23,256 nucleotides of DNA, from positions 1 through 23,256 of the forward strand of contig JAKPCH010000020.1 of NCBI GenBank assembly GCA_029553375.1. The letters run 5' to 3'. The notes beneath the pieces were generated by a model that saw nothing but the letters and a program-made list of their open reading frames with translations, had not been told where the DNA came from and did not search any database. Source of the DNA: Deltaproteobacteria bacterium (GTDB lineage Bacteria > Desulfobacterota > Syntrophia > Syntrophales > UBA8958). Each line of letters starts with the position of its first letter. Within the stretch, counting starts at the first letter, position 1. Below, one piece after another: positions 3,711 to 7,581 of the stretch. The translations under genes and the position numbers were made by a program.

Positions 3711-4478
3711 ATGAAGAAGGTTTGCATCGTCGTGACGATGGTCCTGTTCATCGTGGCGGCCCGTGCCGGTATGGCCCAGGGGCAGGACGGTTGGGTCCAA
3801 TTCAAGGGTTTCAAGTACAGACTGACCACCGTGGAGGGGACCTGGTCGGAGGCCGAGGCCGAGGCCATCCGTCACGGCGGCCACCTGGCGACGATCAACT
3901 CCCGGGAGGAGAACGACTGGCTCGTCAGGACCTTCGGCAACGACAAGAGCTTCTGGATCGGCTTCTACCAGCCCGCCGGGTCCCAGGAACCGGCCGGGGG
4001 CTGGCGCTGGGTGAGCGGCGAGAGGGTGGTCTACACCAACTGGGACGGCGGTCAGCCCGACAACTACACGGGCCGGGACAACTACGCCATGCTCCTGAGC
4101 GGCGCCGGGGGCCGGTGGCACGACGTCCCCCTGGAGGGCTGGCCCATGACCTCCCGGTTCCGGGGGATCATCAAGGTCAAGGCCGAGCTCGAATGCGCCG
4201 TCTTCAGGGGAGTTGAGTACTGTCTCACCCCCTCCGAGGGCGACTGGAACCAGGCCGAGGCCGAGGCCATCCGTCACGGCGGCCACCTGGCGACGATCAA
4301 CTCCCGGGAGGAGAACGACTGGCTCATCAGGACCTTCGGCAACGACAAGAGCTTCTGGATCGGCTTCTACCAGCCCGCCGGGTCCCAGGAACCGGCCGGG
4401 GGCTGGCGCTGGGTGAGCGGCGAGACGGCGGTCAGCCCGACAACTACACGGGCCGGGACAACTACGCCATGCTTTTGA
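3711..4478 (+). CDS. Secreted tandem C-type-lectin-like domain (CTLD) protein; second domain truncated by a frameshift
   Basis: RBS GGAGGTGG then ATG 3711. Signal peptide MKKVCIVVTMVLFIVAARAGMA. Domain 1 (about 3790-4190) has the CTLD hallmarks WIGFYQ…WRWVSGE…YTNWDGGQPDN…YAML…GRWHDVP (QPD and W-H/N-D motifs) but no cysteines. Domain 2 (from about 4200) is a near-identical nucleotide duplicate. It lacks 22 bp (GGGTGGTCTACACCAACTGGGA) present in domain 1, so the frame shifts and terminates at TGA 4476-4478. Confidence 0.75.
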   Translation: MKKVCIVVTMVLFIVAARAGMAQGQDGWVQFKGFKYRLTTVEGTWSEAEAEAIRHGGHLATINSREENDWLVRTFGNDKSFWIGFYQPAGSQEPAGGWRWVSGERVVYTNWDGGQPDNYTGRDNYAMLLSGAGGRWHDVPLEGWPMTSRFRGIIKVKAELECAVFRGVEYCLTPSEGDWNQAEAEAIRHGGHLATINSREENDWLIRTFGNDKSFWIGFYQPAGSQEPAGGWRWVSGETAVSPTTTRAGTTTPCF

Positions 4479-4578
4479 GCGGCGCCGGGGGCCGGTGGCA
4501 TGACGTCCCCCTGGAGGGCTGGCCCATGACCTCCCGGTTCCGGGGGATCATGAAATTGAAATAGGGGGCGCGAGATGT
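4367..4578 (+). repeat. Direct repeat copy A (3' end of CTLD gene plus TAGGGGGCGCG junction)
   Basis: About 80-85% identical to 7414..7581. Both copies carry the same deletion junction GGCG(A/G)GACGGCGGTCAGCCCGAC. Both end …CCCATGACCTCCCG(G/T)TTCCGGGGG(A/G)TCATGAA(A/G)TT(G/C)AAATAGGGGGCGCG followed by an ATG. Confidence 0.7.
4426..4564 (+). pseudogene. Out-of-frame C-terminal remainder of the second CTLD repeat
   Basis: After the 22-bp deletion junction (about 4425/4426) the original CTLD reading frame continues intact (…GGQPDNYTGRDNYAMLLSGAGGRWHDVPLEGWPMTSRFRGIMKLK) to TAG 4562-4564. This frame differs from that of 3711..4478. Confidence 0.6.
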
Positions 4579-5840
4579 ACTGGGAAAGACTTTCGCGGGA
4601 AGAGATCAGAAGACGGGTCGCCATCGCCATCGACGGCAATGTAAACTACCACACCGACGCCGTCTTGGGTTTTCCCGGCACGCACCTCGACGCCGAGGAT
4701 TATTATGCCGACGGCTGCTCCGTCCTCACCAGGATCCCCTGGGCGTCTCCCCTCCTCGACGACGAGCCCTTTCTCAGGACCATCATCGAGAACCCCAACC
4801 ACATCGGCTGCCACACCGCCGCGGAGTCGGAGGTGGGCTTCCCCGGCACCCAGGCCCTCGAACGGGAGGCCCTGGCCATCTGCGCCGAGGAGATCATGGG
4901 CGCCCCCGCGGGCGCCTATGACGGCTACATCTCGCCGGGGGGAACGGAAAGCAACATCCAGGCCTGCTGGGTCCTGCGCAATCTCCTCCGCCGCACCCAC
5001 GCGGCCCGGCCGGGTGAGGTCGGCCTCGTCTTTTCCTCCGACACCCATTACTCCCTTTGGAAGGCCGCCGACCTCCTCGGTCTTCGTCCCTATCCCGTCC
5101 CCGTCTCCGACACGACGAGGGAGATGGGGGCAGACGCCGCGCACGCAACCGTGGCAGCCGCCGTGAGGGACGGCGTTCGTTGTGTCATCGGGGTGGTCAA
5201 CATGGGCACAACCATGTTCGGATCCATCGATGACCTCGACGTCCTCGTCGCGGCCTTCGAGGAACACAACCTCCCCTTCTACCTCCATGTGGACGGCGCC
5301 TTCGGCGGTTTCATCTACCCCTTCGTCGTCCCCGACCACCCCCTCGATTTCCGCAACCCCCTCATCGCCTCCATCACCATGGACGCCCACAAGATGCTCA
5401 AGGCCCCCTACGGCACGGGCATCTTCCTCTGCCGCAAGGGCCTCATCGACGAGGTCTGCACGACCCAGGCGAGCTATGTCCACGGGAAGGACTACACCGT
5501 CTGCGGCAGCCGGTCGGGTGCCAACGCCGTCGCCGTCTGGATGCTCCTGCGCGACGCGGGCTCCGAGGGGCACACGGACCGCTGCCGCCGTCTCGTGGAG
5601 CGGACCGACCGTTTCTGCAGCCGTCTCGACGCCATGGGCGTCGCCTATTACCGCCACCCGGCGATGAACCAGGTCGCCATCAGGGCCGAGTACGTCCCCC
5701 CGGAGACGGCGCGGCGCTTTCTCCTCGTCCCCGACCGCCACGACGACACGCCCCGGTGGTGGAAGATCATCGTCATGGACCACGTCCGGGATGCCCTCCT
5801 CGAATATCTCCTGGAGGAAATAGGGGAACAAAATACCTAG
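4575..5840 (+). CDS. PLP-dependent group II amino-acid decarboxylase (MfnA / tyrosine-aspartate-glutamate decarboxylase-like)
   Basis: ATG 4575 with G-rich RBS (AGGGGG). Family motifs ISPGGTESNI, HVDGAFGGF and SITMDAHKM (PLP-binding lysine) match the MfnA-type decarboxylase pattern SGGTEANL / HVDAAFGG / S.T.DPHK. Confidence 0.8.
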   Translation: MYWERLSREEIRRRVAIAIDGNVNYHTDAVLGFPGTHLDAEDYYADGCSVLTRIPWASPLLDDEPFLRTIIENPNHIGCHTAAESEVGFPGTQALEREALAICAEEIMGAPAGAYDGYISPGGTESNIQACWVLRNLLRRTHAARPGEVGLVFSSDTHYSLWKAADLLGLRPYPVPVSDTTREMGADAAHATVAAAVRDGVRCVIGVVNMGTTMFGSIDDLDVLVAAFEEHNLPFYLHVDGAFGGFIYPFVVPDHPLDFRNPLIASITMDAHKMLKAPYGTGIFLCRKGLIDEVCTTQASYVHGKDYTVCGSRSGANAVAVWMLLRDAGSEGHTDRCRRLVERTDRFCSRLDAMGVAYYRHPAMNQVAIRAEYVPPETARRFLLVPDRHDDTPRWWKIIVMDHVRDALLEYLLEEIGEQNT

Positions 5841-6131: not shown

Positions 6132-7310
6132 ATGGGTACCCAAAAATCCGTTACGGCTCTTCCTTCAGAGTTTTCACGGCCTCGACTCGTTCAGGGCAGG
6201 GGGGTTGCCCGGCGTATCGTCGAAAACGTTCTTGCGCGGGCCGGCGTGGGAATAAACGGTCCCAACCCCTGGGACATCCGGGTTCACGATGAACGGCTCT
6301 ACGCGCGCGTCCTGCGGGAGAAAAATCTCGGGCTCGGCGAGGCCTACATGGACGGCTGGTGGGACTGCCAGCGGATCGACGAGTTCATCTGCCGCGTTCT
6401 GCGCGCCGGGCTCGACGAGGCCATCAGGGGAAGCGCGGCCTATCTTCTGCGTTTTTTCCCTTCCCTGGTGCTCAATCTGCAGTCGAAATCCCGCGCCCAC
6501 ATCATCGCGCAGCGCCACTACGACCGCGACAACGACCTCTTCCTTTCGTTCCTCGACCCATACAACCAGTACAGTTGCGCCTACTTCCAGGAAACGGACG
6601 ACCTGGCAGAAGCCCAGCAGAAGAAGCTGGAACTTCTCTGCCGGAAACTCAACCTGCAGGCGGGGAACCGGGTCCTTGACATCGGCGGCGGCTGGGGCGG
6701 CCTCGCCCGCCACATGGCCGAGCGGCACGGCTGCACCGTCACCTCCGTAAACATCTCCGGGGAGCAGGTCCGCTATGCCAGGGATTTCTGCCGGGGCCTG
6801 CCCGTGACCGTCATCCAGGCGGATTACCGGCAGATCGGCGGCACCTTCGACAAGATCGTCTCCGTCGGGATGTTCGAGCACGTGGGCTGGAGGAACTACC
6901 GGATCTTCATGAACATCGTACACAGGTGCCTGAAACCGGAGGGCGTCTTTCTGCTCCAGACCATCGGCGGCAACGAGTCGCGGGTCAGCTGCGATCCCTG
7001 GATCACCCGGTACATCTTCCCCAACGGCATGCTGCCGAGCATCGCCCAGATCGGCCGGGCCGTGGAGGGGCTCTTCGTCGTGGAGGACTGGCACAACCTC
7101 GGGCCGCACTACGACCGGACGCTCATGGCCTGGTACGAGAACTTCCAGCGGGCCTGGGACCGCCTGAAGGAGCGCTACGACGACCGTTTCAAACGCATGT
7201 GGGATTATTACCTGCTGTCCTGCGCGGGGGCCTTCCGCGCGCGGAGCATCCAGCTCTGGCAGATCGTGCTGACGAAACCCGGCACCGTTCAGCCTGCCTG
7301 CAGGATATAG
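6132..7310 (+). CDS. cfa: Cyclopropane-fatty-acyl-phospholipid synthase (SAM-dependent methyltransferase, Cfa family)
   Basis: RBS GGAGGGGG then ATG 6132. Near-collinear identity to the E. coli Cfa pattern: GINGPNPWDIRV, LGLGEAYMDGWWDC, LNLQSKSRAHIIAQRHYDRDNDLF, LDPYNQYSCAYF, VLDIGGGWGGLA, IVSVGMFEHVG, DPWITRYIFPNGMLPS, DWHNLGPHYDRTLMAWYENF, RMWDYYLLSCAGAFRAR.IQLWQIV. Codon usage is less GC3-rich than neighbouring genes. Confidence 0.9.
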   Translation: MGTQKSVTALPSEFSRPRLVQGRGVARRIVENVLARAGVGINGPNPWDIRVHDERLYARVLREKNLGLGEAYMDGWWDCQRIDEFICRVLRAGLDEAIRGSAAYLLRFFPSLVLNLQSKSRAHIIAQRHYDRDNDLFLSFLDPYNQYSCAYFQETDDLAEAQQKKLELLCRKLNLQAGNRVLDIGGGWGGLARHMAERHGCTVTSVNISGEQVRYARDFCRGLPVTVIQADYRQIGGTFDKIVSVGMFEHVGWRNYRIFMNIVHRCLKPEGVFLLQTIGGNESRVSCDPWITRYIFPNGMLPSIAQIGRAVEGLFVVEDWHNLGPHYDRTLMAWYENFQRAWDRLKERYDDRFKRMWDYYLLSCAGAFRARSIQLWQIVLTKPGTVQPACRI

Positions 7311-7413
7311 AACAGGTCTTGTCGTCTTGTCTCATGGCCGCCACGGGGGGACGACGAAAAGCGAAGAAAAGTTGATTCGACCGTATCACGCCGGTTCGTG
7401 CGTGAAAACCGGA

Positions 7414-7581
7414 CCGCTGCCAGCCCGCCGGGGGCCGGCGCCGGGTGAGCGGCGGGACGGCGGTCAGCCCGACAACTACGCCCTGCCCCTGAGGGGCGCC
7501 GGGGGCCTATGGCATGACGTCCCCCGGGAGGGCCGGCCCATGACCTCCCGTTTCCGGGGGGTCATGAAGTTCAAATAGGGG
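7414..7581 (+). pseudogene. Direct repeat copy B: degenerate fragment of the CTLD gene 3' end
   Basis: Translates in one frame to …GGQPDNYALPLRGAGGLWHDVPREGRPMTSRFRGVMKFK* followed by AGGGGGCGCG-ATG, mirroring 4426-4578. Relative to copy A it has two short internal deletions (about 17 and 18 bp). No start or signal peptide, so not an intact gene. Confidence 0.65.

Follow-up and report, generated by a model that had tools for sequence, protein, structure and literature searches.

The last part of a C-type lectin gene occurs twice in the window (the whole stretch of 23,256 nt that was analyzed), once in the gene itself and once, in decayed form, beyond a decarboxylase gene and cfa. On balance, this distal copy (copy 3) is probably the displaced, dead original end of the lectin gene, left behind by an old insertion with duplication and kept active by ordinary homologous recombination. 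The locus reveals no new mobile element or mechanism; it would be a clean natural example of a 3'-end insertion-with-duplication whose relic keeps exchanging with its parent gene, seen across many metagenome assemblies of one Syntrophales species. The following features were identified.

3711..4564, + strand: C-type lectin gene (Pfam Lectin_C, E 1.9e-22) encoding a signal-peptide-like N-terminus followed by a tandem pair of CTLDs
~3780-4180 and ~4203-4561, + strand: CTLD domain 1 and domain 2, respectively
4370..4577, + strand: copy 2, the proximal repeat, with ~190 nt of the end of lectin domain 2, the stop, GGGGCGCG and AG-ATG, the decarboxylase start (from alignments)
4575..5840, + strand: predicted group II PLP-dependent decarboxylase (Pfam Pyridoxal_deC, E 7.9e-24)
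5841..6131, + strand: lower-GC spacer of 291 nt (GC 0.47-0.56) that contains a promoter-like site (5874-5901)
6132..7310, + strand: cfa, cyclopropane fatty acyl phospholipid synthase (Pfam CMAS, E 4.8e-84)
7311..7419, + strand: unique segment of 109 nt from the cfa stop to copy 3
7420..7591, + strand: copy 3, the distal repeat, a decayed lectin 3' end with deletions at 7455/7456 (22 bp), ~7432/7433 and ~7470/7471 (18 nt each; from alignments)
7576-7578, + strand: TAG at the end of copy 3, then GGGGCGCG, then GC-ATG
7592..7624, + strand: GC-rich stem-loop with a 14-bp stem directly after copy 3 (fold -38.4 kcal/mol, z -3.6, 0 of 200 shuffles as stable)
7623..7651, + strand: promoter-like site of the yedE leader, TTGACA-17 nt-TATAAG, read from the sequence

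The initial annotation had noticed that the lectin 3' end recurs downstream of cfa and had proposed an alignment of the two segments. This alignment showed homology between 4370-4572 (up to the ATG at 4575-4577) and 7420-7586 (ATG at 7589-7591), which refined the earlier coordinates, and in a self-BLAST of the 23-kb window the query 7401-7600 matched 4392-4572 with an E value of 9e-49. The same query also matched lectin domain 1 (4077-4180, E 1e-34). Beyond these two, the best match in the 23 kb had an E value of 0.013; further copies were found neither in the window nor at any other locus in JGI metagenomes. The duplication has a length of ~200 bp, and both copies are followed by TAGGGGGCGCG and NN-ATG. 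The copies were identical at 153 of 171 aligned columns (89.5%), or 74% when two 18-nt gaps are counted; the earlier estimate had been 80-85%. The small internal deletions that had been seen in the second copy correspond to the two 18-nt deletions of copy 3, each flanked by short direct repeats (GCCGGG and GACAACTAC), and the 22-bp-deletion junction relative to domain 1 was indeed located in both copies, at 4423/4424 and 7455/7456. The bracketed geometry, with the gene end regenerated beside the gene and a second copy past the cargo, also holds.

Compared with the lectin gene, copy 3 carries 11 nonsynonymous changes, 3 of them Trp-to-Arg, and 3 synonymous changes (pN/pS 1.19), in addition to a total of three deletions. 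AT-to-GC differences account for 12 of the 18 mismatches between copies 2 and 3, and the 83-aa ORF of copy 3 had no Pfam match. Judged by these changes, copy 3 has decayed neutrally and is a non-coding remnant of the lectin 3' end. The context of copy 3, with a stop, a stem-loop and a conserved yedE promoter, looks like an original gene end. The promoter-like site and a leader motif are kept upstream of yedE in the Syntrophales contigs L046, L048 and L061; conservation of position and sequence was assessed by alignment with L046 and L061. The stem-loop at 7592-7624 has no U-tract and is likely the original end-of-gene hairpin, for which a role as terminator is assumed. No stem-loop was detected after copy 2, where the fold of 4556-4621 was no better than that of shuffled sequences (z -1.07).

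The arrangement was present in all of ~25 independent assemblies (~99% identical) of one uncultured Syntrophales species, and copy 3 was found in every contig covering the site. The same layout was recovered in >20 contigs from ENA, JGI and NCBI assemblies that differ in assembler and k value. The copy-specific flanks and SNPs are spanned by 55-mers, and an assembly artefact is scarcely credible. In the window, the translated lectin ORF stops early at 4478 instead of at the original-frame stop TAG 4562-4564, because the 22-bp deletion after 4423 shifts the frame. Other strains carry intact lectin alleles of 291 aa with two domains or 157 aa with one domain. The 22-bp deletion was present in all copy 3 sequences vs 3 of ~12 distinct lectin alleles, namely those of the window and of L002/L003 (with the duplicates L051/L052). 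The earlier proposal of a derivation of one copy from the other is correct for the window but incomplete. With the deletion fixed in copy 3 yet polymorphic among lectin alleles, gene conversion between the copies at a later stage is indicated.

Exchange between the copies was seen as patches of sequence. In contigs L008/L056, copy 3 is the lectin tail, and in L009, L035 and L036 it is a mosaic with a lectin-type 5' part and a relic-type 3' part; in some strains it is identical to the lectin tail across 149 nt. Between L008 and the window, the 165-nt copy 3 differs at 14 sites and by an 18-nt indel, whereas the flanks are 99.9% identical over 1130 nt and 100% over 1500 nt. In some strains, copy 3 was overwritten wholly or half by the lectin tail within flanks that are 99.9-100% identical, and most of the observed flux runs from the lectin gene to the relic. 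Conversely, relic-type deletions (the 22-bp deletion alone or together with an 18-nt deletion) occur in lectin alleles of three independent assemblies, which keep lectin-type SNPs on either side of the deletions. This suggests that the frameshifted lectin alleles were imported from copy 3 by gene conversion, and frameshifted alleles of a surface-type lectin can carry a deletion that is otherwise fixed in a neighbouring pseudogene fragment. The conversion tracts that replaced SNPs and repaired the 18-nt deletion did not remove the 22-bp deletion, which requires either an unsampled 22-bp-deleted donor allele or separate tracts.

A search for an empty site, as proposed by the initial annotation, yielded contigs (L034/L039 and L044) in which an intact lectin gene reads straight into the yedE flank from 7587 onward; the junction is ambiguous. 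L034/L039 and L044 end exactly 127 and 55 nt past the start of AAATAGGGGGCGCG, which are assembler k-mer sizes, so that they stop one k-mer past the last distinguishing base. Since some strains have a copy 3 identical to the lectin tail, these contigs are indistinguishable from a graph path through the repeat, and many contigs break in this region. As a practical matter, empty-site-like contigs ending one k-mer past a repeat need read-level confirmation. No pre-insertion state was found in outgroups; relatives identified via yedE (82-83% aa identity) and via the lipoprotein gene (73-84% aa) were both without the lectin gene.

These observations are best explained by a probable history in which the lectin 3' end gained a 3.05-kb unit, consisting of lectin tail, PLP decarboxylase, cfa and 109 nt, with the last ~200 bp of the gene as the homology anchor. 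The event may have been a single-crossover (Campbell-type) or a homology-facilitated illegitimate recombination, and would have relied on the host's recombination functions and no dedicated integrase. The resident lectin end, along with the stem-loop and the neighbouring yedE promoter, would have been displaced 3 kb downstream, leaving the lectin gene with a complete end, now directly adjoining the start codon of the decarboxylase. The displaced end then decayed neutrally, as its substitutions show. The mosaics suggest that, in the natural population, the direct repeats still undergo homologous recombination, by which lectin-tail sequence would overwrite the relic in some strains and the 22-bp deletion of the relic would enter the lectin gene of others, truncating or inactivating the lectin. 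Deletion from repeat to repeat may also remove the cassette. The absence of lectin and cfa beside the decarboxylase relatives and the slightly lower GC3 of the cargo speak for this history; the outgroups that have no lectin gene, the lack of a donor, the ambiguity of the empty-site contigs, the mildness of the GC3 deviation, the missing U-tract of the stem-loop and the retention of the 22-bp deletion in converted copies speak against it.

The initial annotation had instead compared the repeats with attL/attR, which corresponds to a small integrative element inserted site-specifically at the lectin 3' end; e14 and phage 21 at icd are known cases. Direct repeats of a target-gene 3' end at both ends of an insert, a geometry like that of e14 between icd and the C-terminal fragment pseudogene icdC (PMC13626634), and the empty-site-like junction in two contigs agree with this, but we consider it improbable. 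As the annotation had already stated for the window, no integrase or transposase is visible; Pfam searches of the cassette genes and window ORFs and precomputed Pfam annotations from -10 to +16 kb of the extended contigs, the flanks in which it had suggested looking, revealed neither these nor a reverse transcriptase. The 2.85-kb cargo has no recombinase and consists of two housekeeping-type genes, cassette and repeat are absent from viral contigs and plasmids, and the repeat occurs at no other locus. The patchy mosaics are typical of homologous gene conversion and not of a fixed-core crossover, and the empty-site contigs end at k-mer-defined graph nodes. A transposon- or IS-bounded cassette was rejected as well, as there is no transposase, no inverted repeat flanks the cassette among the 25 longest of 62, and the duplication of ~200 bp is not short. 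Nothing in the sequence indicates a mobile element.

A different origin of copy 3, which we regard as possible though doubtful, is that it remains from a second lectin gene or represents an ectopic duplicate of the lectin tail, and that the cargo was not brought by recombination at the tail. The 5' part of a tandem paralogue could have been overwritten on arrival of decarboxylase and cfa, or a break in the cfa-yedE spacer could have been repaired from the lectin tail. The lectin gene is a tandem-repeat gene whose CTLD number varies (one or two), a 2.18-kb tandem duplication 3 kb upstream is polymorphic, indicating that segmental duplication is common at the locus, and neither a donor nor an empty outgroup was found. 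However, copy 3 has the stop, the same 8-10 nt 3' UTR, the hairpin and the conserved yedE promoter, an order that fits a real gene end and does not fit a random templated patch; lectin homology is absent upstream of 7420, and no close lectin paralogue exists among 5.8 billion proteins (next best 66% identical). That copy 3 persists because it serves as a silent donor cassette, switching the surface lectin between full-length and truncated forms by gene conversion in the manner of pilS or a contingency locus, appears very improbable, and the same low probability is given to its retention as a one-cassette switch for reversible truncation and restoration of a secreted or surface lectin in the population, with decarboxylase and cfa dropped or kept. 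The relic-type deletions between lectin-type SNPs in three independent assemblies and the signal-peptide-like N-terminus would be expected for it, but there is a single donor whose ORF evolves neutrally (pN/pS 1.19), transfers merely break the lectin without diversification, the flux seen is mostly from lectin to relic, and the 18-nt deletion, which has 9-nt direct repeats on either side, could arise repeatedly through slippage. Superficially, a ~150-nt repeat at the GC-rich 3' end of a gene with a C-type lectin fold looks like the VR/TR pair of a DGR, and contig breaks are frequent in the region; a DGR template/variable repeat pair, or an artefact, is nevertheless scarcely credible, as the mismatches are not adenine-specific (at A in 5 of 18 for copy 2 and 1 of 18 for copy 3), T-to-C is the commonest change between the copies, no reverse transcriptase lies near the repeats in the window or from -10 to +16 kb, and the bridged layout recurs across assemblers.

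The displaced-end reading has parallels in known systems. In E. coli K-12, the cryptic prophage e14 separates icd from icdC, and recombination between icd and icdC removes the insert and yields a chimeric gene (PMC13626634). As in icd/icdC (e14, phage 21), the lectin locus has a complete gene 3' end beside the insert and a C-terminal fragment pseudogene in direct orientation at the far end. Unlike e14, a 15-kb prophage with its own integrase and site-specific excision, the insert here spans 2.85 kb, carries two metabolic genes and lacks a recombinase, and the exchange resembles gene conversion of the RecA type. At rhs, cdiA and T6SS effector loci, C-terminal displacement leaves orphan 3' fragments, for which homology-facilitated illegitimate recombination was proposed; a full-length gene is likewise followed by cargo and then by a displaced homologous 3' fragment able to recombine with the main gene (PMC5361080). 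The displaced ends in those loci are, however, different toxin domains, each with an immunity gene, in growing arrays, whereas the lectin locus has one fragment with the same CTLD tail, a cargo of decarboxylase and cfa, and no donor lineage was found. A third parallel is the concerted evolution, or gene conversion, of a gene with a pseudogene copy close by, as with donors of the pilE/pilS type. Similarly, non-reciprocal patches appear to pass here between a promoterless partial copy and an expressed gene, giving mosaic alleles in near-identical strains; in contrast to the several divergent pilS donors, there is one donor and no selection, and transfers into the lectin gene only cause frameshifts.

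The content of the bracketed segment had been described as a PLP decarboxylase, an AT-rich spacer of ~290 bp and cfa, which agrees with the genes and the lower-GC spacer identified here. The decarboxylase start codon lies 10 nt past the lectin stop. NCBIfam matches of the decarboxylase (MfnA, histidine decarboxylase) fall below the cutoff. Its relatives in Syntrophales MAGs (71-74% identity) align from residue 1 and have unrelated neighbours; lectin or cfa was found within 10 kb in 0 of 23 genomes, and the analysis found no donor in which a lectin-decarboxylase junction is native. The segment 7311-7419 showed no residual lectin homology (Smith-Waterman score 13 vs a shuffle mean of 11.9). By its match to NCBIfam NF008686 (573 bits vs a cutoff of 400), the predicted cfa product is a genuine CFA synthase. 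Some strains have a decarboxylase-cfa spacer that is shorter by 12 nt. In composition, the cargo deviates only mildly, with GC3 values of 0.867 and 0.845 slightly under those of most neighbours (0.89-0.955); a nearby I42 inhibitor-domain gene (11954-13168) has a GC3 of 0.835.

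Self-BLAST of the window confirmed that a lectin-tail repeat lies on both sides of the decarboxylase-cfa pair, as proposed in the initial annotation. Positions 7401-7600 matched 4392-4572 with an E-value of 9e-49 and, apart from the first C-type lectin domain (CTLD) of the lectin (domain 1, about 3780-4180), no match to 7401-7600 in the window was better than E 0.013. The locus is organized as follows.

3711 onward, plus strand: signal-peptide-bearing C-type lectin with two tandem CTLDs; its own 3' end (4370-4577) is copy 2 of the repeat
4575-5840, plus strand: group II PLP decarboxylase
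5841-6131: decarboxylase-cfa spacer of 291 nt with lower GC (0.47-0.56)
6132-7310, plus strand: bona fide cyclopropane fatty acyl phospholipid synthase (cfa)
Between cfa and copy 3: unique stretch of 109 nt
7420-7591, plus strand: copy 3, a second copy of the last ~170-200 nt of the lectin

In a global alignment of copy 2 and copy 3, 153 of 171 aligned bases were identical, with two additional 18-nt gaps; the repeat itself was thus correctly recognized before, but its exact boundaries and identity had to be revised slightly, to these values. The homology stops 8-10 nt past the stop codon, directly before an ATG in each copy. The common 22-bp-deletion junction described initially was also recovered, as the same 22 nt are missing from both copies with domain 1 as reference. 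In the window this deletion causes a frameshift in the lectin, whose open reading frame ends at 4478 and not at the TAG at 4562-4564. The spacer contains a promoter-like site at 5874-5901 and occurs among strains in two length variants, 12 nt apart. The cfa protein of the window was not on record in an exact-sequence look-up.

Exact-sequence look-ups of the decarboxylase, lectin and yedE proteins and one DNA scan together yielded about 25 contigs. All belong to the same uncultured Syntrophales species, come from independent assemblies in ENA, JGI and NCBI, and share 97.4-99.8% identity with the window (about 99% in most cases). All contigs spanning the site contained the cassette and a copy 3 with the 22-bp deletion. 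Copy 3 was observed in three forms: a diverged relic type in most contigs as well as the window, a form equal to the lectin tail except for the 22-bp deletion (contigs L008/L056), and a mosaic with a lectin-type 5' half and a relic-type 3' half (L009, L035 and L036). Upstream of copy 3, L008 matched the window at 99.9% identity over 1130 nt, and downstream at 100% over 1500 nt, yet within copy 3 it differed at 14 sites and by an 18-nt indel in about 165 nt. Such near-identical flanks around a divergent copy 3 are a hallmark of gene conversion.

The lectin gene was found as an allele with two intact domains (291 aa), one with a single intact domain (157 aa), the allele of the window with two domains and the 22-bp deletion, and that of L002/L003 with one domain and both the 22-bp and an 18-nt deletion. 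Transfer of the 22-bp deletion from the relic to the lectin gene would be the economical explanation, because this deletion, rare in the gene but fixed in copy 3, offers only 2 nt of microhomology. The 18-nt deletion is flanked by 9-nt repeats, and slippage could generate it more than once. There is good support for gene conversion between the lectin gene and its displaced end as a present behaviour of the locus.

CTLD copy number is polymorphic among about 99%-identical strains (one versus two tandem 402-nt domains; lectin at 3780-4564 in the window, 5739-6614 in L001, 3361-3834 in L005 and 3303-3650 in L002), frameshifted alleles also occur among such strains, and many assembly breaks fall inside the lectin gene. 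Some strains further contain a 2182-bp tandem duplication that includes an Ion_trans (ion-transport) gene and, in L043, a 177-aa ORF (window 1-466, as a single copy or a start inside the repeat; L043 1-2482, L001 32-2496, L034 2062-4700).

Compared with the lectin tail in the lectin frame, copy 3 showed 11 nonsynonymous and 3 synonymous changes (pN/pS 1.19), including three Trp-to-Arg replacements at conserved CTLD tryptophans, and three deletions, and its 83-aa ORF had no Pfam match. Together, these features argue that copy 3 is a non-coding relic under neutral decay. Twelve of its 18 mismatches are AT-to-GC, among them three TGG-to-CGG; this excess may stem from biased mutation or from GC-biased gene conversion in a genome of 65-70% GC.

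Directly 3' of copy 3, a 14-bp GC-rich stem-loop is located at 7592-7624 (-38.4 kcal/mol, z -3.6; without U-tract); next come a TTGACA-17-TATAAG site plus a leader motif, each of them conserved 5' of yedE in three further species of Syntrophales. No comparable hairpin was found at copy 2 (z -1.07), where the decarboxylase start codon lies 10 nt beyond the lectin stop, and a terminator scan identified no canonical terminator downstream of either copy. The setting of copy 3 thus looks like a native gene end. In the simplest reading, copy 3 is the original lectin end in its original context and the present lectin end came with the cargo.

Junctions that look cassette-less were found when empty sites were sought, as the initial annotation had suggested: contigs Ga0208824_1002259 (L034/L039, from the scan) and L044 (from the lectin look-up) run from an intact two-domain lectin into the sequence downstream of copy 3. 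Their ends fall exactly 127 and 55 nt past the start of AAATAGGGGGCGCG, which is one k-mer past the last base separating lectin-type from relic-type tails. Three further contigs stop precisely where the repeat ends, and L008 starts exactly 55 nt before that point. The contig ends follow assembly-graph logic. Since 149 nt are identical between lectin-type copy 3 and the lectin tail, a graph path through the repeat would give the same empty-site contigs. A real cassette-less strain, ancestral or resulting from repeat-to-repeat deletion, may exist.

No integrase, transposase or reverse transcriptase was detected in the cassette, the window or the extended contigs (-10 to +16 kb). This agrees with the initial annotation, which saw no integrase or transposase in the window, and speaks against its suggestion of site-specific integration; a recombinase-driven element was rejected on these grounds. 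A tRNA scan of the window was negative and Rfam gave no match over the window at the gathering threshold or over 7300-8100 at the E-value threshold, which leaves neither a tRNA/tmRNA att site nor a known RNA. Collections of mobile elements gave no counterpart of the locus: the decarboxylase, cassette and repeat were absent from viral contigs and plasmids gave only generic cfa matches (66-68%). A DGR was dismissed because the mismatches are not adenine-specific and a reverse transcriptase is missing, and a dispersed repeat family, named earlier as a possible refutation, because the 27-nt tail pattern occurred in only three JGI metagenome contigs, all from this locus. The cargo deviates only mildly in composition (GC3 slightly low), so that compositional foreignness was not retained.

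Relatives reached through yedE or the lipoprotein gene have no lectin at all, so that these homologues led to no lectin-bearing relative in which an empty site could be seen. Decarboxylase relatives in Syntrophales and Smithella MAGs (71-74% identical) sit among unrelated genes. In 23 genomes, neither a lectin nor cfa occurred within 10 kb, and no native lectin-decarboxylase or decarboxylase-cfa pair that could mark a donor was present. The history is therefore not readable from an outgroup, and the origin of the arrangement is inferred. From the anatomy, an insertion with duplication is favoured, in which the lectin tail would have served as homology anchor, by a Campbell-type single crossover or homology-facilitated illegitimate recombination. 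In the principal alternative, copy 3 would be left over from a second copy of the lectin or would be a templated patch; no residual lectin homology was detected left of 7420, and the 5.8-billion-protein collection held no close lectin paralogue (next best 66% identical). Insertion with duplication has parallels in the icd/icdC arrangement around e14 (PMC13626634), although here an integrase is lacking, and in C-terminal displacement in rhs and T6SS loci (PMC5361080), although here without toxin/immunity logic. The arrangement is a new instance of an already known kind of structure.

In L061, a contig of another Syntrophales species, the region 6124-10571 encodes a lipoprotein 83% identical to that of the window, with yedE-tusA about 2 kb away on the opposite side and inverted, and without lectin, decarboxylase or cfa; the lipoprotein-yedE interval is therefore rearrangement-prone in this lineage. 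Directly 3' of the relic, a selenium-utilisation cluster comprises yedE, tusA, a 68-aa ORF and selB (window 9896-11839 and 8079-9400). The yedE upstream region of roughly 450 nt (window 7623-7900; L046 about 3600-4000, L048 about 1450-1800, L061 about 10100-10450, minus strand) has no Rfam match. About 75 nt 3' of its promoter-like TTGACA-17-TATAAG, a strongly conserved motif, TTAATATGAGGCG...AGAGGGCCCGGGCGGTCCTC, is followed by helices and is common to four Syntrophales species. From an input of only four sequences, RNAalifold predicted 27 pairs, with compensatory changes in 8. The region could be a previously undescribed cis-regulatory leader for the selenium-transporter operon.
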